NCBI GenBank assembly: GCA_964016885.1
Contig: OZ024747.1
Coordinates: 60,698,001-60,762,000, forward strand
Direction: 5' to 3'
DNA: 64,000 bases
From: Eledone cirrhosa
Lineage: Eukaryota
How positions within the stretch are numbered: position 1 is the stretch's first letter; every line of letters begins with the position of its first letter. The notes under the pieces were generated by a model. The model ran no database searches. It was not told where the DNA came from and saw only the letters and a program-made list of their open reading frames with translations. Positions 5,015 to 57,570 of this stretch are shown piece after piece. Made by a program: the position numbers and the translations under genes.

Positions 5015-5648
5015 GTGGAGACTTCTGGTGTCCTTGGCCCTAGGACCACCTCCCTACTCACCCCCATCGGCACGGAGTTGGCAACCTCTGGTGTCCTTGG
5101 CTCTAGGCTCACCTCCCTACTCACCCCCATCGGCACAGAGTTGGCAACCTCTGGTGTCCTTGGCCCTAGGACCACCTCCCTACTCACCCCCATCGGCACG
5201 GAGTTGGCAACCTCTGGTGTCCTTGGCTCTAGGCTCACCTCCCTACTCACCCCCATCGGCACAGAGTTGGCAACCTCTGGTGTCCTTGGCCCTAGGACCA
5301 CCTCCCTACTCACCCCCATCGGCACGGAGTTGGCAACCTCTGGTGTCCTTGGCCCTAGGAGCACCTCCCTACACACCCCCATCGACATGGAGTTGGAGAC
5401 CTCTGGTGTCCTTGGCCTTAGGACCACCTCCCTACTCACCCCCATCGACATGGAGTTGGAGACCTCTGGTGTCCTTGGCCCTAGGACCACCTCCCTACTC
5501 ACCCCCATCGGCATGGAGTTGGAGACCTCTGGTGTACTTGGCCCTAGGAGCACCTCCCTACTCACCCCCATCGGCATGGAGTTGGAGACCTCTGGTGTAC
5601 TTGGCCCTAGGAGCACCTCCCTACTCACCCCCATCGGCATGGAGTTGG
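5015..5648 (+). repeat. 63-bp minisatellite (about 10 units) derived from the CRE-clade RLE coding sequence
   Basis: The unit translates as (V/L)ETSGVLGPRTTSLLTPIGTELAT, matching the minus-strand coding segments at about 33800-33860 and 61040-61150. Confidence 0.85.
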
Positions 5649-17519: not shown

Positions 17520-18008
17520 TCATCATCATCGTCGTCGTCATTTTCTTCTTCTTCTTCTTTTTCTTCTTCTTTTTCTTCTTCTTCTTCTTCGCCTTCTTCT
17601 TCTCCTTCTTCTTCTTCTTCTTCTTCGCCTTCTTCTTCGCCTTCTTCTTCTTCTTCTTCTTCTTCTTCGCCTTCTTCTCCTTCTTCTTCTTCGCCTTCTT
17701 CTCCTTCTTCTTCTTCTTCTTCTTCTTTGCCTTCTTCTTCGCCTTCTTCTTCTTCTTCTTCTCCTTCTTCTTCTCCTTCTTCTTCTTCGCCTTCTCCTTC
17801 TTCTTCGCCTTCTTCTTCGCCTTCTTCTTCGCCTTCTTCTTCGCCTTCTTCTCCTTCTTCTTCTTCTTCTTCGCCTTCTTCTCCTTCTTCTTCTACGCCT
17901 TCTTTTTCTTCTTCTTTGCCTTCTTCTCCTTCTTCTTCTTCTTCTTCTTCTTCGCCTTCTTCTTCGCCTTCTTCTCCTTCGCCTTCTTTGCCTTCTTCTT
18001 CTTCTTCG
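17520..18008. repeat. (TTC)n microsatellite with TTCGCC/TTCTCC interruptions
   Basis: Directly visible. Confidence 0.95.
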
Positions 18009-23464: not shown

Positions 23465-24365
23465 ACGTGTGTGTGTATGTGCGTAACTCTGTGTGTGTAT
23501 GTGCGTAACTCTGTGTGTGTATGTGCGTAACTCTGTGTGTGTATGTGCGTAACTTTGTGTGTGTATGTGCGTAACTCTGTGTGTGTATGTGCGTAACTCT
23601 GTGTGTGTATGTGCGTAACTCTGTGTGTGTATGTGCGTAACTCTGTGTGTGTATGTGCGTAACTCCGTGTGTGTATGTGCGTAACTCTGTGTGTGTATGT
23701 GCGTAACTCCGTGTGTGTATGTGCGTAACTCTGTGTGTGTATGTGCGTAACTCCGTGTGTGTATGTGCGTAACTCTGTGTGTGCATGTGCGTAACTCCGT
23801 GTGTGTATGTGCGTAACTCTGTGTGTGTATGTGCGTAACTCCGTGTGTGTATGTGCGTAACTCCGTGTGTGTATGTGCGTAACTCTGTGTGTGTATGTGC
23901 GTAACTCTATGTGCGTAACTCCGTGTGTGTATGTGCGTAACTCTGCGTGTGTATGTGTGTAACTCTGTGTGTGTATGTGCGTAACTCTGTGTGTGTATGT
24001 GCGTAACTCCGTGTGTGTATGTGCGTAACTCCGTGTGTGTATGTGCGTAACTCTGTGTGTGTATGTGCGTAACTCTGTGTGTGTATGTGCGTAACTCTGT
24101 GTGTGTATGTGCGTAACTCTGTGTGTGTATGTGCGTAACTCTGTGTGTGTATGTGCGTAACTCCGTGTGCGTATGTGCGTAACTCCGTGTGCGTAACTGC
24201 GTAACTCCGTGTGTGTATGTGCGTAACTCTGTGTGTGTATGTGCGTAACTCTGTGTGTGTATGTGCGTAACTCTGTGTGTGTATGTGCGTAACTTTGTGT
24301 GTGTATGTGCGTAACTCTGTGTGTGTATGTGCGTAACTCTGTGTGTGTATGTGCATAATTGTGTG
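23465..24365. repeat. 22-bp minisatellite (about 40 units)
   Basis: Unit gtgtgtgtatgtgcgtaactc(t/c). Confidence 0.95.
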
Positions 24366-24659
24366 TGTGTGTCTCCCCTGCAAGGCACTGCCAATATCTT
24401 CTTAAATATAAGGAGCAAAAAAATAGGAAAAACTATATAATAAAGACACTACTTCACATGAAATATTCAATATAGGTACAGGCAGAGCTATGTGGTTAAG
24501 GAGCTAATTTCATAACCACATGGTTCTGTGTTTCATCCCACTGTGTAGTGCCCTCGGGTTAACATTGACTGGAATTTCGTCGACTTAATTTGAGAGGTAC
24601 ATTTAAGTTGAAAGTGGGACATTTAATTTGGGTTGGTGGAACACTTTATCTGGAGATAT

Positions 24660-25130: not shown

Positions 25131-25557
25131 GGTAGGATCAATCCATGGCCCAATATAACAACACCACCTGGTCCTTGGGTACCTTTAGCAGAGTCTGCTA
25201 TGTTGCAACCAATTGAACTGAAGATAGCTTCTTCCCCCATTTCCATCAATCTAGGAAGCCCTGAAAGAGGCCATAGGCACTGAGTATCCCTCCCTAACAA
25301 AAAGGTGTTTTTTACAAAAAAGAGTGGAGGTAGATAAGCTGGAATGCTCTAAATTCCTTCTTTGACACAATGATTTACCATAATGATAAATCTTTTAATA
25401 CCAAGCCACCTGATACACCGAAGTTCTACAATAGAAAATTGTTTACCATTATCATCTTTTAACGTCCACTTTCCCAGCTAACAAGTTTGGATGGGTCTAC
25501 ATAACCTCCAAGATAGGCCGAGAGGTCTGCACCTTGCTTATGTATGGCCATATGTTA

Positions 25558-26698
25558 TCTATGTTACTAAAACAGAGAATGTCTGTCTGTCCAATCACTA
25601 AAACTCGAGAACCACCCAAATCTTTAATGCCCTAGGGACTGCATTAGGCAATGTAGCGATCTCTCTCTATAATTCTTAGTCTTTCTCTTTTTAGATAGAT
25701 ACATAGATATAACGTCGCGCCCTTATAATTGTTTCTACGTTAGGCACAAGGCCAGCAAGTACCCAGTGCATTACTGGTACTTTATTTTATCGACCCCGTA
25801 AGGATGAAAGGCAAAGTTAACCTTGGCGGGATTTGAACTCAGAAAGGCAAAGGCCGTAACTCTATACGTCAAAGCATGGCGTCCGACCCTCTACCGATAC
25901 TGCCAATCCACCGCCCTTATAATATGTGTCTGTATGCCTGATGTCTGCATTACGTCATTATGACGGGATCAGTGTGTGTGTGTATATGTATATATAGTGT
26001 GTGTATATATATATATATTATTATGCCAGGGAACGTCTTCACGAACCAAAGTATCGTCTTCCTGTTTTTCTTCGGTTGCAACGTTTTTCGAAATATTTAC
26101 ATCTGCGTTCACAGATTGATTTTTTTTCAGAAGATCGCGTTAAGGGAGAAAGCAACGATTCTTTGCTTAAACTTTAATATGTTATTTTAATATATATATT
26201 CGAGTACAGATATTTTTGCATACACAAACACAAAATATAAACATAAAAGGACGGCGATTACATAATCACATGCATGATTGACAGATATTTTTGCATACAC
26301 AAAAACATTTCGAAATATTTACTTCTGCGTTCACAGATTAATTTTTTTAGTTTCAGAAGATCCCGTTAAGGGTGAAAGCAGCGATTCTTTGCTTAAACTT
26401 TAATCTGCTATTTTAATATATATATATATATAATTATATATTCGTGTACAGATATTTTTGCATACACAATAACAAAACAGATATTTTTGCATACACAATA
26501 ACAAAACAGATATTTTTGCATACACAATAACAAAACAGATATTTTTGCATACACAATAACAAAACAGATATTTTTGCATACACAATAACAAAATATAAAC
26601 AAACGTATTTATTTCACGAGGCTCGATAAGGAAAAATATATATCAAATATATAAGAACCCTAGAGCAAATCCCGAGCAACGCCAGACCATTCTGCTAG
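25558..26698 (+). mobile_element. Non-autonomous Helitron
   Basis: A|TC 5' end, subterminal GC hairpin (CCCGAGCAACGCC) and CTAG|T 3' end. A homologous inverted copy lies at 37396-38043. Confidence 0.75.
25728..25915 (-). mobile_element. SINE family A nested in the Helitron, with TSD
   Basis: CGCCCTTATAAT at 25718-25729 and 25912-25923. The empty site is seen in the second Helitron copy. Confidence 0.9.
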
Positions 26699-37395: not shown

Positions 37396-37553
37396 CTAGC
37401 AGAATGGCCCGGCGTTGCTCGGGATTTGCTCTAGGGTTCTTATATATTTGATATATATTTATCCTTATCAAGCCTCGTGAAATAAATACGTTTGTTTATA
37501 TTTTGTTATTGTGTATACAAAAATATCTGTACACGAATATATAATTATATATA

Positions 37554-37603
<50 letters not shown>

Positions 37604-38043
37604 TAACAAATTAAAGTTTAAGCAAAGAATGGCTGCTTTCACTCTTAACGGGATCTTCTGAAACCAAAAAAATCAATCTCTGGACGTAGAAGTAAATATT
37701 TCAAAAAACGTTACACACACTATATATATATATATATATATATATACCCACACTATATATATATATATATATATATATACACCCACACTATATATACATA
37801 CACACACACACACACACACACAGCTACATCATAATGTCGTAATGCAGACAGTCAGACATACAGACAGATATTATAAGGGCGCAACGTTATATCTATGTAT
37901 CTATCTAAAAAGAGAAAGACTAAGAATTATAGAGAGAGATCGCTAAATCGCCTAATGCAGTCCCTAGGGCATTGAAAATTTTGGTGGTTTTGAGTTTTAG
38001 TGATTGACAGACAGACAGGAATTCTCTGTTTTATATATATAGA
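37396..38043 (-). mobile_element. Non-autonomous Helitron (second copy)
   Basis: On the minus strand: A|TCTATATATATAAAACAGAGAAT...CCCGAGCAACGCCGGG-CCATTCTG-CTAG|T. Confidence 0.8.
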
Positions 38044-38244
38044 TAAGCTACTCATGTATATGGTTAATTATAATAATTTAATAAATTTAATAATTATGTG
38101 AGTAAATATGTAACGTATTTGTCAATTTTATCTATGTAAACAACTATGGGGAAATAACTCTAAATTATATAAGGTCTCAAGTATTGTATTCAAGGTATGT
38201 TTGCGGTAAACTTTTGATAGATATATATGTGCACGTGTGTGTGA

Positions 38245-41211
38245 ATGTGTGTCTGTTTATCTATCTATCTATCACCGAGTCACCGTTTTAACTTGGTCGA
38301 TAGATATCGACTAGATTTTCCAACTGTGCCTACCTGGACTTGGAGAAACCACAGTGGTCAATCTAGATCGTACTTAGATAGATTCTTAGTTAGAAGTAAG
38401 GATAGGGACATATTAAGCTGTCCAGAAATGCGCACGGTTGGCTACACGGATCACAAATTAGTGACCTGCGTGGTCAATCTCGAGAAAACACATAGACAGG
38501 GTCCCGGTTACTGGAAACTTAATTTGTCTTTACCGGCAAAAGAGACTTACAGAAACCGGATTAGCAGATTAGTTAAGGAGAGGTTGACGGGTGCAATCGT
38601 CAACAACCGATGGTGGGCATCTCTCAAAAGAGAGATTAGAACAGAATCAATAAGTTATAGCAAGATGTTAGCTGCCAATAGGAATAGAAACGAGAAAGAA
38701 TTAACAGGTAAATTAGAAGAGGCAATCAAGAGCGAAGATGTGGCCAGAGTGCTGGCATCGAGGACGGCCTTGAACCAGTTTTTCGATGCAAAGCATGAAG
38801 GCTGCGTCATTCGAAGTAAAATACGTGCTCTAGGTAATGAGGGGGCCAAAGCCGTTGGATGGGCCCGCGTGACAGAAGCTAAAAGTGGAAATCGATCCAC
38901 CATCCGGTCGTTGCAAGACGAAGATGGACGAGTGATCCGGGAGCCTAAGCAGATGTGCGAGGCCTTTCAAAAGCACTTTGCCCGATTGTTCGGGGGAGGC
39001 GAGGGTCCGGGCCGGGGCGTGGATTTCGGTCCATACCTCGACGGCCTGCCGCGTCTCTCGAACAAAGAGGCGGAGTCCTGCGAGGGACCAATCTCGGCTG
39101 ATGAGATCGGAGATGCGCTGAGCCAATGCAGCAGACGCAAATCTCCAGGTCTCGATGGTATACCTTACGAACTTTATTTAGCAATGCCGGTCTTCTTCTC
39201 CGAACTCCTCGAAGCGGTCTACTGCAATTGGCAGCAGAACGGGAGAATTCCTTGTTCTGTAGCCAAGGGCGTAGTCACGCTGGTGAGGAAGGACGAGAAC
39301 AAGGGGGATAGTATAAATAATTTTCGGCCCATAACCCTGCTAAACACAGAGTTAAAGATTTTGGCCAAGGTGTTAGCAAAGAGGTTGGCGCTTGTCGTGG
39401 GTGGCCTGGTGGGAGATGCGCAGACATGTGCTATCCCATCCAGGTCCATTCACGATAACCTCCACCTCATGCGATACATCATAGAGAGGGTTGGCAACAA
39501 ACCCGGCTTCGGTGGGGCCCTGATCAACTTGGATCAGTCTAAGGCCTTCGATAGGGTCGACCATGGTTACCTGGATGCGGTGCTAGCGGCGGCTGGGTTC
39601 GGTCCTGTTTTCAGAGGCTGGATCACTGCCCTACATAGCAACCACATCTGTTCTAGGATCAAGGTGAACGGCTACCTTTCGAAGCCGTTCGAAATCACAC
39701 GATCCATTCGACAGGGGTGCCCTCTCTCCTCCCTTCTGTACGTATTGACTCTCGAGCCTTTACTGAGGAAGTTGGAGTTGTTGCAGGGTATCCCCCTGGA
39801 ACCAGGATTGAGCAAAGCGGTGTCGGCCTACGCCGATGACGTAACAGTAATGGTATCAACCGACTCGGAGATCGAGGCGATCGGTACCTTACTGGAGGAG
39901 TACGAAAGGTTGTCAGGAGCGAAACTGAACCGGGAAAAATCCATCGGGCTGCAACTCGGAACGTGGAGAGGCAGACCGATGCCTCCCGATGGTGTCGTCG
40001 GACACTGGACGGAGGGCCCGGTAAAGTTGCTTGGGGTCTGGTTTGGATCGGACCTCCAGGTGGAAAAGAACTGGAACGAGGTTACGAACAAGGTGTTTGC
40101 ACTAACCCAGAAATGGGCCAAGTGTAAGCTGTCCCTAAAAGGCCGGGCGGAGGTGGCGAACATTTACATAGCGTCCGTCACTTACTACCGCCTGACTGTC
40201 GTGCCTTGCCCTAAGGAAACACTCACCACCATGGAACGCATGCTCTTCCAATTTCTTTGGAAGAAGCGTCCTCCTATGGTGAGAAGATCCATCTGCTGCC
40301 AACAACCTTCGAAAGGAGGGCTGGGGATGCCGTGGTTGATGATGCGTAGGCACGCATTAAGGCTACGGCACCTACAGGTATTCCTCACTGGTCAACCGGT
40401 GTGGGCTCCGTTCGTGAAACGAGCCTTTCCGAGACTCGTCTCACTCACCGAGCTACAGTCCTGGGTCAAGCAAAGATCCGGAAAACTGGGAGACTGGCAC
40501 ACTGAGTGTGCTCAGGCGCTCAGGGCTCTCTGGCAAGCGGGCCGGGCCATCGGTGGAGAATCCACCTCATCATTCTATAGAGGGCTGGTGGCTAGCAGGG
40601 GCGATGACACCCTTGGAGAGTCGCTGGACATGGAAGAAGACGAACTGGCCAGCCTGTTCGGTAGGACTTTCGGCCCAGGACCAATGGACAACTTCCAGAA
40701 GTCACTGGCCTGGCAGTGCTACCGAGGGGCTCTACCCGTTCGAGAGAGGCTCTACAGACACGGGCGCCCGGGCAGGGATCCCTCAAAAAAGATTTACCCT
40801 AGATGCGTGCGTCACGAAGAAACCGTGGCGCACGCATTGGTGCAATGTCCGGGCGTGGCTGATCTGTGGGGCTACGCCGAACAACTGCTGTCGCGGGTGG
40901 CGCCGATTAAATTGACAGCCGAGTCCGTGATGACAATCAAACCGCCTCCCCTCTTCACAAAGGAAGCAAAGGCGGTTTTTCTGTGCGTAATAGCCATGTT
41001 GAAAGAGGTTGTTTGGTGGACACGATTGAAAGGTCTGAGGTCAGGCAACTTCCTCTCTGGCCATAGTCTGGTCTACTTCTTCCGATATCACTTCGGAAGA
41101 AGGATAAGAATGGAGAGAGAGGTGCTTGGCCACAGGCAGTTTTATGAAAGGTGGGTGATAGTGGCGAGAATGGCTCGTGTAAATGGGCCTTCTCTGTATA
41201 CCATCCTGTAG
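38245..41211 (+). CDS. Tx1/L1-clade non-LTR retrotransposon ORF2 (C-terminal part of the APE endonuclease, reverse transcriptase, CCHC region); 5'-truncated, with the ATG in flanking DNA
   Basis: APE motifs WTW..SYLDRFLV..TDHKLV; RT motifs KSPGLDG, FRPITLLNTELKILAK, LDQSKAFDRVDH, IRQGCPLS, AYADD and KLLGV; GGLG; C-terminal (Y)PRC...ETVAHALVQC. No stop codon over 988 codons. Confidence 0.9.
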   Translation: MCVCLSIYLSPSHRFNLVDRYRLDFPTVPTWTWRNHSGQSRSYLDRFLVRSKDRDILSCPEMRTVGYTDHKLVTCVVNLEKTHRQGPGYWKLNLSLPAKETYRNRISRLVKERLTGAIVNNRWWASLKREIRTESISYSKMLAANRNRNEKELTGKLEEAIKSEDVARVLASRTALNQFFDAKHEGCVIRSKIRALGNEGAKAVGWARVTEAKSGNRSTIRSLQDEDGRVIREPKQMCEAFQKHFARLFGGGEGPGRGVDFGPYLDGLPRLSNKEAESCEGPISADEIGDALSQCSRRKSPGLDGIPYELYLAMPVFFSELLEAVYCNWQQNGRIPCSVAKGVVTLVRKDENKGDSINNFRPITLLNTELKILAKVLAKRLALVVGGLVGDAQTCAIPSRSIHDNLHLMRYIIERVGNKPGFGGALINLDQSKAFDRVDHGYLDAVLAAAGFGPVFRGWITALHSNHICSRIKVNGYLSKPFEITRSIRQGCPLSSLLYVLTLEPLLRKLELLQGIPLEPGLSKAVSAYADDVTVMVSTDSEIEAIGTLLEEYERLSGAKLNREKSIGLQLGTWRGRPMPPDGVVGHWTEGPVKLLGVWFGSDLQVEKNWNEVTNKVFALTQKWAKCKLSLKGRAEVANIYIASVTYYRLTVVPCPKETLTTMERMLFQFLWKKRPPMVRRSICCQQPSKGGLGMPWLMMRRHALRLRHLQVFLTGQPVWAPFVKRAFPRLVSLTELQSWVKQRSGKLGDWHTECAQALRALWQAGRAIGGESTSSFYRGLVASRGDDTLGESLDMEEDELASLFGRTFGPGPMDNFQKSLAWQCYRGALPVRERLYRHGRPGRDPSKKIYPRCVRHEETVAHALVQCPGVADLWGYAEQLLSRVAPIKLTAESVMTIKPPPLFTKEAKAVFLCVIAMLKEVVWWTRLKGLRSGNFLSGHSLVYFFRYHFGRRIRMEREVLGHRQFYERWVIVARMARVNGPSLYTIL

Positions 41212-41425
41212 GTAAAGAAGTAAAGGAGAGGGGAGCACCTTCTCCATGTGCTCCCCGGGCAAAGGATTGCACACTTTTTCGGGGGTGTGTGCAACCCCCA
41301 TCACGTCCCCTCCCTTTTGAGGTTATTTTCGATTATTTTCATGTTACACCCTTTTTACTCGATTATATGTAAACTCCCCCTTTGTATTTGTCCCTTCTTT
41401 TTATGCCTTTATGGTAAATAAAGAA
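38282..41425 (+). mobile_element. Tx1-clade LINE copy 1 with 19-bp TSD
   Basis: ATCTATCTATCACCGAGTC at 38263-38281 and 41426-41444. The 3' end is AATAAAGAA with no poly(A). Confidence 0.9.
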
Positions 41426-41436
41426 ATCTATCTATC

Positions 41437-41963
41437 ACCGAGTCCATTGTCATGATCAAACCGCCACCCTCCTTCAAAAACGAAGGAGAGGCGGTTTTCC
41501 TTTGTGTGATAGCTATGGCGAAAGAGGTTGTATGGTGGACAAGGTTGAAAGGGCTGAGGTCAGACACCTTTCTCTCCGGCCAACAACTGATTCTTTTTTT
41601 CAAATACCACTTTGGAAGAAGAATCAGGATGGAGAGAGAGGTGCTGTACCCCGGCAAGTTTTATGAAAGGTGGGTGAAAGTGGCGAGAATGGCCCGAGTG
41701 AATGGGCCTTCTCTCTATATCAGCCTGTAGGTTGAGGAAAAGGAGAGGAAGGGAGTACAAACTCTTCGTACTCCTGGAGATGAGGGTTGCACATTTTTTT
41801 TCGGGGGTATGTGTTACCCATATAAACTGTCACCCTCTATTGGGGAAAATCGACTAACTTTTTAAATTCCATCTGTGATAACATTTTACACGTTTTTATT
41901 GTATGTAAACTTCCCCCTTTGTATTTGTCCCCTTTTTTTGTGCCCCTGTGGCTAATAAAGAAA
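41437..41963 (+). mobile_element. Tx1-clade LINE copy 2 (3' end)
   Basis: IKPPP...AVFLCVIAMAKEVVWWTRLKG...RVNGPSLY* plus a 3' UTR ending AATAAAGAAA, then (ATCT)n. Confidence 0.9.
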
Positions 41964-41983
41964 TATATCTATCTATCTATTTC

Positions 41984-42959
41984 GAGGAAAATGGGCGACT
42001 GGCTCATCGAATGTGCTCAGGCGCTCACAGCCCTCTGGCAGGCGGACCCGGCGATCAGTGGAGACTCCACTTCGTCATTCTATAGAGGGTTGATCCGCAG
42101 CAAGTGCGACGACGCGCTCGAAGAAACTCTAGGCGTGGAGGAAGATGAACTGGCCAGTCTGTTCAGTAGGACCTTCCGCCCGGGACCGATGGACAACTTC
42201 CAAAAGTCCCTGGCCTGGCAGTGCTACTGAAGAGCTCTACCAGTTCGAGACAAGCTCTACAGACATGGGCGCCCGGGCAGGGACCCTTTGAAAAAGATCT
42301 GTCCGAGATGCGTGCGAGATGAAGAAACCGTCGCGCACGCATTCATACACTGCCCGGCCGTTACCGACCTGTGAGGCTATGTAGAACGGCTATTGTCGCG
42401 GGTGGGACCAATCCAGTTGACCACCAAGTCCATTGTCATCATCAAACTGCCCCCCCCCCTCCTTCAAAAACGAAGGAGAGGCGGTTTTCCTTTGTGTGAT
42501 AGCTATGGCGAAAGAGGTTGTATGGTGGACGAGGTTAAAAGGGCTGCGGTCAGACACCTTTCTCTCCAGCCAACAACTGATTCTTTTTTTCAAATACCAC
42601 TTTGGAAGAAGAGTCAGGATGGAGAGAGAGGTGCTGTACCCCAGCAAGTTTTATGAAAGGTGGGTGAAAGTGGCGAGAATGGCCTGAGTGAATGGACCTT
42701 CTCTCTATATCAGCCTGTAGGTTGAGGAAAAAGAGGAAGAGAGGAAAGGGGTGCAAACTCTTCGTACTCCTGGAGATGAGGGTTGCACATTTTTTCAGGT
42801 GTATGTGCTACCCATATGAACTGTCTCCCCCTATTGGGGAAAATCGATTAACTTTTAATTTACAATTGTGATAACATTTTACACGTTTTTATTGTATGTA
42901 AACTCCCCCCTTTGTAATTGTCCCCTTCTTTTGTGCCCCTGTGGCAAATAAAGAAACAA
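41984..42959 (+). mobile_element. Tx1-clade LINE copy 3 (3' 1 kb, with stops and a frameshift) with 17-bp TSD
   Basis: Homologous to 40480-41425. ATCTATCTATCTATTTC at 41967-41983 and 42960-42976. Confidence 0.9.
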
Positions 42960-42972
42960 ATCTATCTATCTA

Positions 42973-43369
42973 TTTCTCTCCGGACAACAATTGATTCACT
43001 TCTTTAAGTATCACTTTAGAAGGAGAATCAGAGTGGAGAGAGAGGCACTGCACCCCAGTAAATTTACTGAAAAGTGGGTGAATGAAGCGAAAATGGCCTC
43101 AGTGATTGGGCCTTCTCTGTTTTAAAGCCTGTAGGTTAAAGAAGAGAGCAAAAGGAAGAAGGGAACACTTGCACAACACGTTCCTGAAGTTGAGGGTTGT
43201 TCTATCGACGGGGTATTAAACAACCCATTTGTGGCGCTTCCCCCCTATTGGGGATTTCGATTGTTGTAATTGTTTGTTTCAATATTTTTACTCGACTGTA
43301 TGTAAAATTCCCGGCATGTGTCTTTGTATTGTCCCCTTTTCTTGTGCGCCCTTGTGGCAAATAAAGAAA
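42973..43369 (+). mobile_element. Tx1-clade LINE copy 4 (3' end)
   Basis: FLSGQQLIHFFKYHF..RIRVERE remnant and a 3' UTR ending AATAAAGAAA, then ATATCTATCT. Confidence 0.85.
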
Positions 43370-43549
43370 TATATCTATCTGTATTCACAGCCATCAGGTG
43401 TAGACAAGCAAGATTATGATGTCAAAGATAAAAACATTTGCAGGAAATTTTGGGGGTGATGTAAAAGTTGATTTCATGGACCCCAGTATTGGCGGAGAGA
43501 GAGAGGGAGAGAAGATGATAAATATAATGTTTTGGGTGAATGACAATAG

Positions 43550-44160
43550 GTGTATGTGTGTGGTTGTGGTGTGTGTGTGGTGGTGGTGGTGGTGGTTGTG
43601 TGTGTGTGTGGTGGTGGTGGTGTCTGTAGTGGGGGTTTGTGTGTGGTGAGTGTGTGTGGTGAGCAAGTGTGGTGGTGGTGGTGGTGGTGGTGGTGTGTGG
43701 TGGTAGTGAGTGTGGTGGTGGTGGTGTGTATGTGGTGGTGGTCGTGATGTATGTAGTGGTGAGGGTGGTGTGTGTGGTGGTGTGTATGTGGTGGGGGTGG
43801 TGTGCGTGGTGTGTGGTGGTGGTGGTGGTAGTGGTGGTGGGTGAGTGTGGTGGTGGTTGTGTGGTGGTGGTGTATGTGGTGGTGTGTGTGTGGTGGTGGT
43901 GTGTGTGTGTGGTGGTGGTGGTGATGTATGTAGTGGTGGTGGTGTATGTGGTGGTGTGTGTGTGGTGGTGGTGTGTGTGTGTGGTGGTGGTGATGTATGT
44001 AGTGGTGGTGGTGTATGTGGTGGTGTATGTGGTGGTGTGTGTCTGGTGGTGGTGTGTGTGTGTGGTGGTGGTGATGTATGTAGTGGTGGTGGTGTATGTG
44101 GTGGTGTGTGTGTGGTGGTGGTGAGTGTGTGTGTGTGGTGGTGGTGGTGGTGGTGAGTGT
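43550..44160. repeat. (GGT)n/(GT)n compound repeat
   Basis: Directly visible. Confidence 0.9.
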
Positions 44161-56689: not shown

Positions 56690-56885
56690 TTGTGGTACCG
56701 AGTTATGGCCCTTTACGTTCTGAGTTCAAATCCTACTGAGGTTAGCTTTGCCTTTCATCCGTACGGAGTCGATAAAATAAAGTACCAGTAATGCACTGGG
56801 TCAATTTAATCCACTCCCCCCCCCCACACACACACAAATTGCTGGCCTTGTGCTTAAATCAGAAACTATTATCATTATTATTATT
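56690..56885 (+). mobile_element. SINE family A
   Basis: B-box, core and (ATT)n tail are present. Confidence 0.8.
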
Positions 56886-56910
56886 ATTAATGATAATAGT
56901 TTCTGATTTA

Positions 56911-57198
56911 AGCCCGAGTGAATGGGCCTACTCTGAGTATATATCTGTAAATTAAAGGTGGAAAACTGGGAGAGGGCACTTGCCTTGGTGGTCAGGGTCA
57001 TTGTGGCTTTTTACTGGGCTTTCTCCACAAATGTCCCTCCGAAGTCTGCCCTCTATTGGGGAATTTTTCATTGTTATTTTTGTTACATCCTCTGTTTTTT
57101 GTTTTTTACACGCAGAAATGCCCATTTGTACCGTCCTGCATTGTCCTGCACTGTCCTTAATGTCTACTTTATGTAAACCCTTGTGGTTAATAAAGAAA
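56911..57198 (+). mobile_element. 3' end of a related Tx1-clade LINE
   Basis: GCCCGAGTGAATGGGCCT (ARVNGP) matches the ORF2 end of copies 1-3. The UTR contains CTATTGGGGA and ends TTGTGG.TAATAAAGAAA. Confidence 0.75.
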
Positions 57199-57223
57199 TC
57201 ATTATTATTATTATTAATAATAA

Positions 57224-57570
57224 CGTCCTTGCCATTCTGAGTTCAAATCGCGCCGAGGTTAACTTTGCCTTTCATCCTTACGGGGTCGATAAAATAAAGT
57301 ACCAGTAATGCACTGGGTAATTGCTGGCCTTGTGCCAAATGTAGAAACAATTATTATTATTATTATTATATGAGGGCAGTGGATTGGCAGTATCGGTGGA
57401 GGGTCGGACGCCATGCTTTTCCGCATAGAGTTACGGCCCTTTATGATCTGAGTTCAAATCCCGCCGAGGTTGACTTTGCCTTTCATCCTTACGGGGTCGA
57501 TAAAATAAAAGTACCAGTAATGCACTGGGTAATTGCACTGGGTAATGGCCTTGTGCCTAAAGTAGAAACA

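Follow-up and report, generated by a model that had tools for sequence, protein, structure and literature searches.

How did four retrotransposon copies come to lie in one orientation, separated by little more than a few ATCT units, at 38259-43380 (+ strand) of the 64-kb stretch of DNA analyzed here (the window)? Our analysis suggests, with a probability of roughly 0.6, that four truncated copies of an L1/Tx1-group element preferring (ATCT)n inserted serially by target-primed reverse transcription, with the nick and the RNA pairing deduced from the junctions. On the + strand, the stack opens with an (ATCT)3 target tract (38259-38270), one unit of which lies upstream of the 5′ copy of a 19-bp duplication (38263-38281). 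There follow copy 1 (38282-41425), a 5′-truncated member of the youngest subfamily in which the remainder of ORF2, residues 171-1145, is open (38284-41211), and the 3′ copy of its duplication (41426-41444), the first ATCT of which is likely element-supplied. Copy 2 comprises the final 527 bases of a second-subfamily element (41436-41962). Beyond it lie ATAT and the 5′ copy of a 17-bp duplication (41963-41983, the duplication itself at 41967-41983); copy 3, the final 972 bases of an element from copy 2's subfamily group (41984-42955); ACAA as a first unit and the 3′ copy of the copy 3 duplication (42956-42976, the duplication at 42960-42976); copy 4, the final 396 bases of a third-subfamily element (42973-43368); and ATAT with (ATCT)2 at the 3′ end (43369-43380). 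All four copies end in AATAAAGAA (at 41425, 41962, 42955, and 43368), and poly(A) follows none of them, in agreement with the first-pass annotation of this DNA. Five of the nine tracts of at least two ATCT units on the + strand of the window are at the stack junctions. The spacers had been described as two to four ATCT units; such units are present, but there are two or three perfect ones, with a different 4-mer in front in three cases (ATAT, ACAA, ATAT), and the ATAT after copy 2 is the typical first unit of that copy's subfamily.

The junctions record much of the order in which the copies arrived. Both duplications, as originally reported, are maximal exact matches, and their tails are indeed the heads of downstream copies: the sequence from 41436 onward continues the ORF2 of copy 2, while copy 4 begins at 42973, so that its head overlaps the 3′ copy of the copy 3 duplication. 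The bases preceding copies 1, 3, and 4 differ from those of their subfamilies at the same place, except for one shared C at 41983. On this junction evidence copy 1 is shown to have inserted after copy 2, the 8-9 non-repeat copy 2 bases that end its 19-bp duplication being decisive. Copy 3 likely inserted after copy 4, but this had been claimed too firmly: only 2-3 copy 4 bases lie within its duplication, which is suggestive, and copy 3 is further from its nearest fetched copy than copy 4 is (94.8% versus 96.2% identity), which lends the claim no support. That copy 2 followed copy 3 we infer solely from decay, copy 3 having stops in ORF2 and being more decayed than copy 2. The most likely order of insertion is thus 4, 3, 2, 1. 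The copies are co-oriented and differently 5′-truncated, as first stated, but the mutual divergence ascribed to them fails for copies 2 and 3, which are 92.0% identical; the other five pairs are at 66.5-73.0%, and three subfamilies are represented. Copy 1 shows 99.8% identity with the full-length element, and the closest copy fetched matches it at 99.9%; it lacks ORF1 and the first 170 residues of ORF2 and keeps the end of the APE endonuclease, the RT, and the C-terminal zinc-binding region. Copy 2 is 98.1% identical to its nearest fetched copy, and copy 3 reaches 97% genome-wide across its first 317 bases.

The full-length element is 5.82 kb long and encodes an ORF1 of 633 aa and an ORF2 of 1145 aa, which share a reading frame and are separated by a stop; both are open in 7 of 18 full-length copies. 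ORF2 contains the Pfam domains Exo_endo_phos, RVT_1, and zf-RVT (the last at 27.0 bits, against a cut-off of 27.5) and no others, with no RNase H, and the APE residues N10, E39, Y112, D141, N143, T189, D202, and D226 are invariant in 11 aligned sequences. A structure prediction for the endonuclease made without an alignment (mean pLDDT 33.9) was set aside. An N-terminal APE, an RT, and a C-terminal cysteine-rich region without RNase H characterize the L1 group (L1 and Tx1) and are all found here, together with that group's two-ORF layout, 5′ truncation, and target-site duplication. Among solved structures the best relatives are human L1 ORF2p (176 bits) and, far behind, R2 (75 bits). In the Tx1 clade, ORF1 carries a CCHC zinc knuckle in place of the vertebrate L1 ORF1 domain; a CX2CX4HX4C motif can be read in the ORF1 of this family, in which a Pfam search at E ≤ 0.05 recovered no family. 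Scores favor Tx1, with 298-332 bits to YTX2-named proteins, 103-129 to plant and Dictyostelium L1-like proteins, and 176 to human L1. A quick RT tree of 59 rows joins the family to YTX2-named proteins (SH-aLRT 92), these names being automatic annotations, and a careful tree of 32 of the 59 rows places it inside an open 25-row group (support 89/84); the rows of both trees lack named representatives of Tx1L, Kibi, Koshi, Keno, and vertebrate L1. Judged by its proteins, then, the family is a young 5.8-kb APE- and RT-bearing LINE of the L1/Tx1 group; the original designation as a Tx1 retrotransposon holds insofar as the protein is of L1/Tx1 type, and a place in the Tx1 clade proper is likely.

The first-pass annotation had proposed ATCT as the target, and had named flanks lacking ATCT or of poly(A) type as what would speak against it. 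Of 100 ATCT-lineage insertions sampled outside the window, 74 carry ATCT at the 5′ junction, against a background of 0.47%, and none carries (ATT)3; ATCT is also present in 80 of 104 3′ flanks. Since an upstream repeat could be co-transcribed, full-length 5′ junctions (44/44 with the target) are weak evidence, and the targeting test was made on truncated copies only: 44 of 70 have ATCT upstream, again against 0.47%. The other 26 have none within 36 bases; some of these probably reflect later insertions, deletions, or mismatch with the reference. Among 139 sampled insertions, none is reversed relative to the repeat and none has a 3′ poly(A). The share of ATCT exceeds by a wide margin the 20% of flanks of one sequence type by which Kojima 2015 recognizes target specificity, and, on the evidence of these flanks, ATCT is a genuine target of the family. 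Target and tail, initially posed as alternatives, do not exclude one another. Of 14 anchored cases picked by hand, 7 have a 4-mer directly past the element that is unlike the target's own copy, and in 6 of these 7 it is the subfamily's commonest unit. Because the first four bases past AATAAAGAA thus appear to belong to the element, ATCT would be target and short tail at once, with the element supplying the first 3-4 bases and probably more, and the duplications may in truth be some 4 bp shorter. Among 24 anchored duplications, 16 have their end 18-22 bases past AATAAAGAA. Of 11 hand-picked cases, 10 also have an in-phase ATCT upstream of what was duplicated, where 4.9 were expected (p about 0.001, the background offering just 37 multi-unit tracts beside 2,476 single ATCT), an excess for which RNA-primer pairing alone does not account. 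Later slippage or earlier insertions can likewise add ATCT units. The family has at least 13,032 ATCT-type 3′ ends in the 3.0-Gb genome; a second member lies no more than 100 bases away for 44 of 93 insertions, 37 of 38 downstream neighbors being on the same strand, and stacks of this kind are routine for it.

A sister lineage in (ATT)n is also represented in the window, by a 286-base 3′ piece (56912-57197, + strand) that ends in AATAAAGAA followed by ATC(ATT)n and is 98.9% identical to its nearest copies. Its 21-bp ATT-type duplication lies at 56871-56891 and 57198-57218, the 5′ copy being separated from the element by 20 extra bases. The two lineages share 67% ORF2 identity. Sister-lineage 5′ junctions carry (ATT)3 in 21 of 34 cases (background 0.45%) and ATCT in none of the 34; ATT-type 3′ ends number at least 13,084, and no cross-over of targets was seen between the lineages among about 13,000 3′ ends each. 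Of roughly 30,000 ends in the genome, 13% belong to neither the ATCT nor the ATT class. Identity between the lineages is 61-63% in the endonuclease and 64-68% in the C-terminal region; the endonuclease shows no excess divergence. Five ATCT-lineage and three ATT-lineage sequences are separated by 21 fixed endonuclease differences, any of which, with just two lineages compared, speaks for shared descent only. The B6-B5 loop was considered as a target switch and rejected, since none of the 21 falls there; one of its positions is Ser versus Ile/Thr.

In the mechanism we favor, the APE endonuclease would nick the AGAT strand at a T/AG step in a tract of at least two units. The element RNA would end in AATAAAGAA followed by a 4-mer particular to the subfamily and, probably, by one or two units resembling ATCT, with no copied poly(A), and this end would pair with the freed AGAT end and prime reverse transcription. 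A cut in the second strand about 18-22 bases past the AATAAAGAA position would then duplicate the remainder of the tract together with the head of any older copy behind it. Since each insertion leaves ATCT on both sides, the site would stay usable and same-strand stacks would grow. The ATT sister lineage would follow the same process on (ATT)n, with its ATC-ATT end. A more specific proposal, that the sister lineages, apparently still active, have split between (ATCT)n and (ATT)n through their RNA 3′-end bases and that the RNA mainly programs the landing repeat, appears improbable.

Two simpler accounts divide this mechanism between them. If recognition by the endonuclease of (AGAT)n to either side of the nick were sufficient, what follows AATAAAGAA would be a mere element end and pairing would have no role in the choice of site. 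Such a reading is unlikely but carries some weight: it accommodates the upstream ATCT in 10 of 11 cases and the 21 separating endonuclease positions, the Tx1L endonuclease is itself described as sequence-specific (PMC1950540), and target choice is described as set mainly by the endonuclease (PMC4494074). It sits poorly with the tracking of the target by the terminal element bases in both lineages, and with four off-target insertions (L099, L113, L145, L158) that still start with the lineage seed and have a few bases in common with it. Less probable again is that a loose endonuclease nicks many A/T-rich steps and extension occurs only where the RNA's ATCT or ATT units pair. Several observations would fit: 7 of the 14 anchored cases have a first unit that comes from the element, seed and target differ in parallel between the lineages, none of the fixed endonuclease differences falls in the B6-B5 loop and there is no excess endonuclease divergence, and some insertions are at ATAT-rich or one-unit sites. 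Against it, the paired part has ATCT upstream at twice the expected frequency, and a seed of 6-8 bases fits many isolated sites, yet the insertions are mostly in tracts.

The remaining accounts dispense with targeting or with separate insertions. Were (ATCT)n tails simply made at random sites, the association would arise without any targeting, and the opening bases of the 3′ repeat do come from the element, much as octopus RTE LINEs are described with microsatellite 3′ ends (PMC9115989); but the truncated 5′ junctions with upstream ATCT contradict this, as do duplications that begin in ATCT and extend into unique sequence found on both sides, and we regard it as very improbable. That the stack came from tandem duplication, from unequal crossing-over, or from a single read-through is hardly credible at this locus, even though copies 2 and 3 are 92% alike. 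Duplication (or an assembly effect) is nonetheless seen in the family: another array has a pair of neighboring 5,817-base units that match at 100%, junctions included, and some arrays away from this locus have the look of duplicates, not of independent insertions. At 38259-43380, in contrast, three subfamilies at 66-73% identity have different truncation points, and each copy is nearer to copies elsewhere (95-99.9%) than to its neighbors, which bears out the original view of independent insertions. The junction 22-mers recur at only two and three further genomic places, with unrelated flanks at all five, and a co-mobilized composite was rejected because the junctions are not copied together with their flanks elsewhere. 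A search of public runs for the empty site gave no contig spanning the stack and no cover of 43391-43453; as just 0.20-0.35 of the flank words are present in these runs, it is mute on polymorphism. Contig ends in the public runs carry (ATCT)n behind a copy-4-type 3′ end (68-87 contigs per run in one sample, 3 contigs in a second organism), which cannot separate target from tail.

With microsatellite-specific Tx1 families already on record, a further repeat unit adds only modestly. More weight comes from the scale, with intact young copies and at least 13,000 3′ ends of each type, and from the natural switch of target between lineages that each have their own RNA-encoded seed. The pair makes endonuclease-versus-RNA targeting testable by direct swap, on a question of target choice that a review calls not well understood (PMC3812793). 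Moreover, nested duplications give relative dates of subfamilies, and markers built on ATCT/GATA or ATT will, in such genomes, frequently be bordered by repetitive sequence.

Kibi in (TC)n, Koshi in (TTC)n, and crocodilian Tx1 families in (TTCC)n or (TTTC)n, as described in PMC4494074 and PMC3812793, are likewise APE-type LINEs of the Tx1 clade that prefer one microsatellite. The present family, with its ATCT or ATT flanks, is not a member of any of them, and its host is mollusc-like, likely an octopod, whereas theirs are vertebrates; its RT is 37-39% identical to vertebrate Tx1-labelled proteins, with no sister relation in the careful tree (Kibi and Koshi are not among its rows). In Xenopus, the Tx1L endonuclease is reported to nick before 5′-AGTT (PMC1950540), whereas the nick deduced here would fall before 5′-AGAT, and the reported target of Tx1L is another transposon, Tx1D (PMC4494074), rather than a microsatellite. 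SART1Bm and R1Bm offer a likeness in mechanism, as RNA-target annealing to the nicked strand is proposed for them and simple-repeat insertion needs several units, but SART1Bm insertions carry poly(A) (PMC7265360), which none of 139 do here. Both also belong to the R1 clade and have a telomeric or rDNA target, unlike this family. Dong, of the R4 clade, has a restriction-like endonuclease. R4 is listed among such clades (PMC4640811), Dong is reported to insert in (TAA)n (PMC3812793), and Dong-R4 is reported as active in octopus (PMC13282606); it thus shares repeat and animal group with the ATT sister lineage, which differs in having an APE endonuclease and in grouping with the ATCT family. For Octopus vulgaris, PMC13282606 lists 421 near-full-length young insertions from 13 L1-Tx1 families with recent activity, and the ATCT family or its kin is therefore probably already in octopus repeat libraries; that paper describes no target specificity, and the word "target" is absent from its main text. 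We found no LINE targeting ATCT, AGAT, or GATA in the literature, including PMC4494074, PMC3812793, PMC4640811, PMC8869645, PMC9115989 (which has no "Tx1"), and PMC13282606, although Repbase, Dfam, Fig. 3 and the supplements of PMC4494074, and Kojima and Fujiwara 2004 may list such a target. Set beside the microsatellite-specific Tx1 families already known, what distinguishes this one is the repeat unit, ATCT, with ATT in the sister lineage.

The stack of four 5′-truncated LINE pieces at 38259..43380 has the layout that the first-pass annotation gave it. All four lie on the + strand (copy 1, 38282..41425; copy 2, 41436..41962; copy 3, 41984..42955; copy 4, 42973..43368), and each terminates in AATAAAGAA (41417-41425, 41954-41962, 42947-42955, and 43360-43368, respectively, all +) with no poly(A) after it, as had been claimed. 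The proposed target-site duplications (TSDs), of 19 bp for copy 1 (38263-38281 and 41426-41444) and 17 bp for copy 3 (41967-41983 and 42960-42976), are exact matches that extend no further. The + strand of the window has nine tracts of at least two ATCT units, and five of them, with 3, 2, 3, 3, and 2 units, are located at stack junctions. The description of four mutually diverged copies holds for most pairs (66.5–73.0% identity over the common 3′ 400 bases), but copies 2 and 3 are 92.0% identical and thus three subfamilies, not four, are represented. Elsewhere in the window, the left flank (37501-38046) and 25555-26594 contain inverted dispersed repeat segments that are 78–95% alike, and long minisatellite or simple-repeat arrays lie at 1151-1659, 5024-5648, 17543-18007, 23468-24370, and 43560-44160, with units of 48, 63, 12/3, and 22 bp plus GGT/GT mixtures.

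Collectively, our analyses support, with a probability of about 0.95, a target-specific family of which the four window copies are separate insertions. The element's own bases before each truncation point were read from same-subfamily copies elsewhere. Those related to copy 1 do not carry the end of the 19-mer there, and the copy 1 duplication includes 8–9 non-repeat bases from copy 2 ORF2; hence copy 1 inserted after copy 2, as originally proposed. For copy 3, AGACC precedes the truncation point in 29/29 other loci, so that its own contribution to the 17-mer is at most the last C, and for copy 4, GCC is found before TTTC at most other loci. The copy 3 duplication ends 21 bases past AATAAAGAA, which is typical for the family, but only 2–3 of its bases are neither repeat nor copy 3's own, making the proposed insertion of copy 3 after copy 4 likely rather than proven. 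The closest fetched copies show 99.9, 98.1, 94.8, and 96.2% identity to copies 1 to 4, respectively (copy 2 was never used as a query and copy 3 was queried over its first 317 bases only, best 97%), values that would fit copy 1 as the youngest and copy 2 as the next, with copies 3 and 4 older and inseparable by decay. A 22-mer across the copy 4 5′ junction occurs three times in the genome and one across the copy 2 junction four times. At all five places outside the window the flanks are unrelated; these are thus separate truncations at an identical base and no copied composite. With the three subfamilies, this sustains the view of independent insertions rather than a tandem duplication.

Genome searches returned 962 first-look candidates for copy 1, 3,438 for copy 3, and 2,788 for copy 4, of which 40 per query were scored. 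The window and all fetched loci together contributed 204 distinct 3′ ends. A match of ≥88% to one of eight single reference copies was obtained for 165 (39 dropped), and 139 of these had at least 70 bases past the 5′ junction (26 dropped). In this sample, which is biased toward window-like copies and the largest contigs and was obtained with queries devoid of ATCT, 74 of 100 ATCT-lineage insertions had an ATCT 8-mer no more than 36 bases from the 5′ junction and none had (ATT)3 (window copies excluded). The key set is the truncated insertions, where an upstream repeat cannot belong to the RNA: 44/70 have the 8-mer and 26/70 lack it within 36 bases, against a background rate of 0.47% in 20 arbitrary 10-kb stretches. 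Neither a reverse-orientation repeat nor a poly(A) of at least six was found in any of the 139 insertions, and the sampled flanks are the opposite of those that the first-pass annotation had considered adverse to its reading, namely mostly lacking upstream ATCT or of poly(A) type. Non-repeat bases anchor 24 duplications, of which 16 end 18–22 bases past AATAAAGAA; five long ones sit in tandem repeats, where anchoring fails. The truncated junctions and anchored duplications together indicate that ATCT existed before insertion as the target.

ATCT is also a short tail supplied by the element, so its description as the target is only part of the picture. The seven bases directly after AATAAAGAA are subfamily-specific: ATCTATC in 34/42 ends of one subfamily, ATATATC (27/45) or ACATATC (10/45) in another, and ATATATC (18/34) or ATCTATC (10/34) in the third. 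Of 14 hand-picked anchored cases, seven have a first 4-mer unlike the one in the target's own copy, and in six of these seven it is the subfamily's commonest unit. It follows that the RNA is the source of the first unit and that the TSD lengths of 19 and 17 bp, exact as matches, are upper bounds. At one locus (G000:C26 near 19.06 Mb), the element 3′ end plus this target-like seed (~22 bases) is tandemly repeated several times at the junction.

Stacking is routine in this family, and the window offers a clear rather than an unusual case. Another member lies within 100 bases of 44 of 93 resolved ATCT-lineage insertions, and 37/38 downstream neighbors are co-oriented. Full-length head-to-tail trimers of 5.8-kb copies also occur (L031/L032, G000:C1:348.917-348.935 Mb, and L033/L034); two units of the former do not differ across 5,817 bases (100% identity) or at their junctions, a pattern indicative of duplication or of an assembly effect at that array. 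Directly upstream of that trimer is a MITE-like 84-bp inverted repeat pair, 95% alike and ~300 bases apart (L031:1126-1430).

Copy 1 shares 99.8% identity with a 5.82-kb element in which ORF1 (633 aa) and ORF2 (1145 aa) occupy the same frame and are separated by a stop. ORF2 contains an APE endonuclease and an RT and weakly matches zf-RVT. Pfam gave no match for ORF1, which carries a CX2CX4HX4C knuckle. ORF2 is full in 11 and both ORFs are open in 7 of 18 full-length copies examined from the copy 1 subfamily (one copy unread), and the family is probably still active. The best named relative is an Argonauta hians protein (68% identity across 41% of the query), which, given also the wealth of microsatellites in the window, would suggest an octopod host; among solved structures, L1 ORF2p scores best (176 bits), followed by R2 (75 bits), and YTX2-named proteins score 298–332 bits. 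The Tx1 assignment stands firmly at the level of the L1/Tx1 group, but Tx1 clade membership is only likely: a quick RT tree (59 rows) joins the family to the YTX2 rows with support 92, and a careful tree of 32 of those rows leaves the family in an open group (89/84) without recovering that grouping. A large sister clade at 40–45% identity (proteins P0002-P0036), some clusters of which hold hundreds of members, groups with the family at 100/100. Three loci (L126, L101, and L239) hold mosaic-looking copies of two ATCT subfamilies, with ORF2 85% or 95% identical to subfamily 1, or a subfamily-3-type endonuclease before a subfamily-4 end. Distant LINE pieces, 28–37% identical to ORF2, adjoin ATCT-lineage copies (L048:69-884, L131:124-684, L114:6224-6628, and L089:2173-2646) and may represent another family with the same target.

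A sister lineage, with 809 search candidates, is associated with (ATT)n and is represented in the window by a related 3′ piece (56912-57197) that runs into ATC(ATT)n. The two lineages are ~73% alike in DNA and 67% in ORF2. At ATT-lineage 5′ junctions, (ATT)3 is present in 21/34 insertions (7/20 of those truncated; background 0.45%) and ATCT in 0/34. A shared 3′ motif, which misses the copy 1 subfamily, occurs 30,061 times in the genome versus 7 for a control; 13,032 occurrences continue NNTATC and 13,084 NNATT, together 87%. By eye, the initial 30 motif occurrences of the largest contig split 16 to 14 between two 3′ UTR types, and each type kept to its own repeat without exception. In the careful tree, the ATCT subfamilies form one clade (100/100), the ATT lineage joins the Argonauta protein (94/91), and both lineages fall in a single clade (100/100). 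A short interspersed repeat with an (ATT)n end has several copies in the window (56700-56900, 57219-57500, and near 240-300). The window piece and other ATT-lineage copies sit in such tails, and SINE tails thus seem to supply ATT targets. One ATT-lineage insertion (G000:C4 near 249.175 Mb) lies at an almost unique site and has a duplication of 51 bp.

Mechanistically, the APE domain would nick the AGAT strand, the RNA end would pair with the primer, and the second strand would be cut ~20 bases further, insertion thereby regenerating the target site. An AATAAA lying ~ten bases ahead of the point where the conserved seed ends could be a cleavage signal, and priming would then start upstream of any poly(A). 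We favor, as the probable arrangement, site choice by the endonuclease plus the RNA seed. Between lineages the endonuclease is 61–63% identical (RT, 74–76%; C-terminal part, 64–68%) and has 21 fixed differences, none of the 21 within the B6-B5 loop, and the seeds differ as well. An endonuclease acting alone appears unlikely. A seed acting alone is more doubtful still. It could account for the RNA-copied first unit, but there is a hint that DNA past the RNA-paired bases is read; extra upstream ATCT is present in 10 of 11 hand-picked cases with an ATCT first unit, with 4.9 expected from tract lengths (p ~0.001). That expectation is drawn from a small background of 37 multi-unit tracts, and units may also be gained by slippage.

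The ATCT family is real and target-specific, and it can be set beside known systems. A literature search, thin for subscription journals and conducted outside Repbase and Dfam, found no ATCT-, AGAT-, or GATA-specific LINE. In the accessible portions of the papers concerned, Tx1 targets comprise (TC)n, (TTC)n, (TTCC)n, (TTTC)n, U2, and transposons (PMC4494074). Togen, with (TG)n, is added by PMC4640811 and PMC8869645, the accessible portions of which contain no ATCT target. Waldo, Mino, Kibi, Koshi, and Dong are listed in PMC3812793, which calls the mechanism poorly understood. The accessible text on Octopus vulgaris describes 13 recently active L1-Tx1 families with targets not given (PMC13282606), and that of PMC9115989 does not mention Tx1. 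The Tx1L endonuclease is reported to be sequence-specific (PMC1950540), and RNA–target annealing has been proposed for SART1Bm (PMC7265360). An ATCT target alone is incremental; the pairing of ATCT and ATT lineages with RNA-supplied seeds offers a clean experiment.
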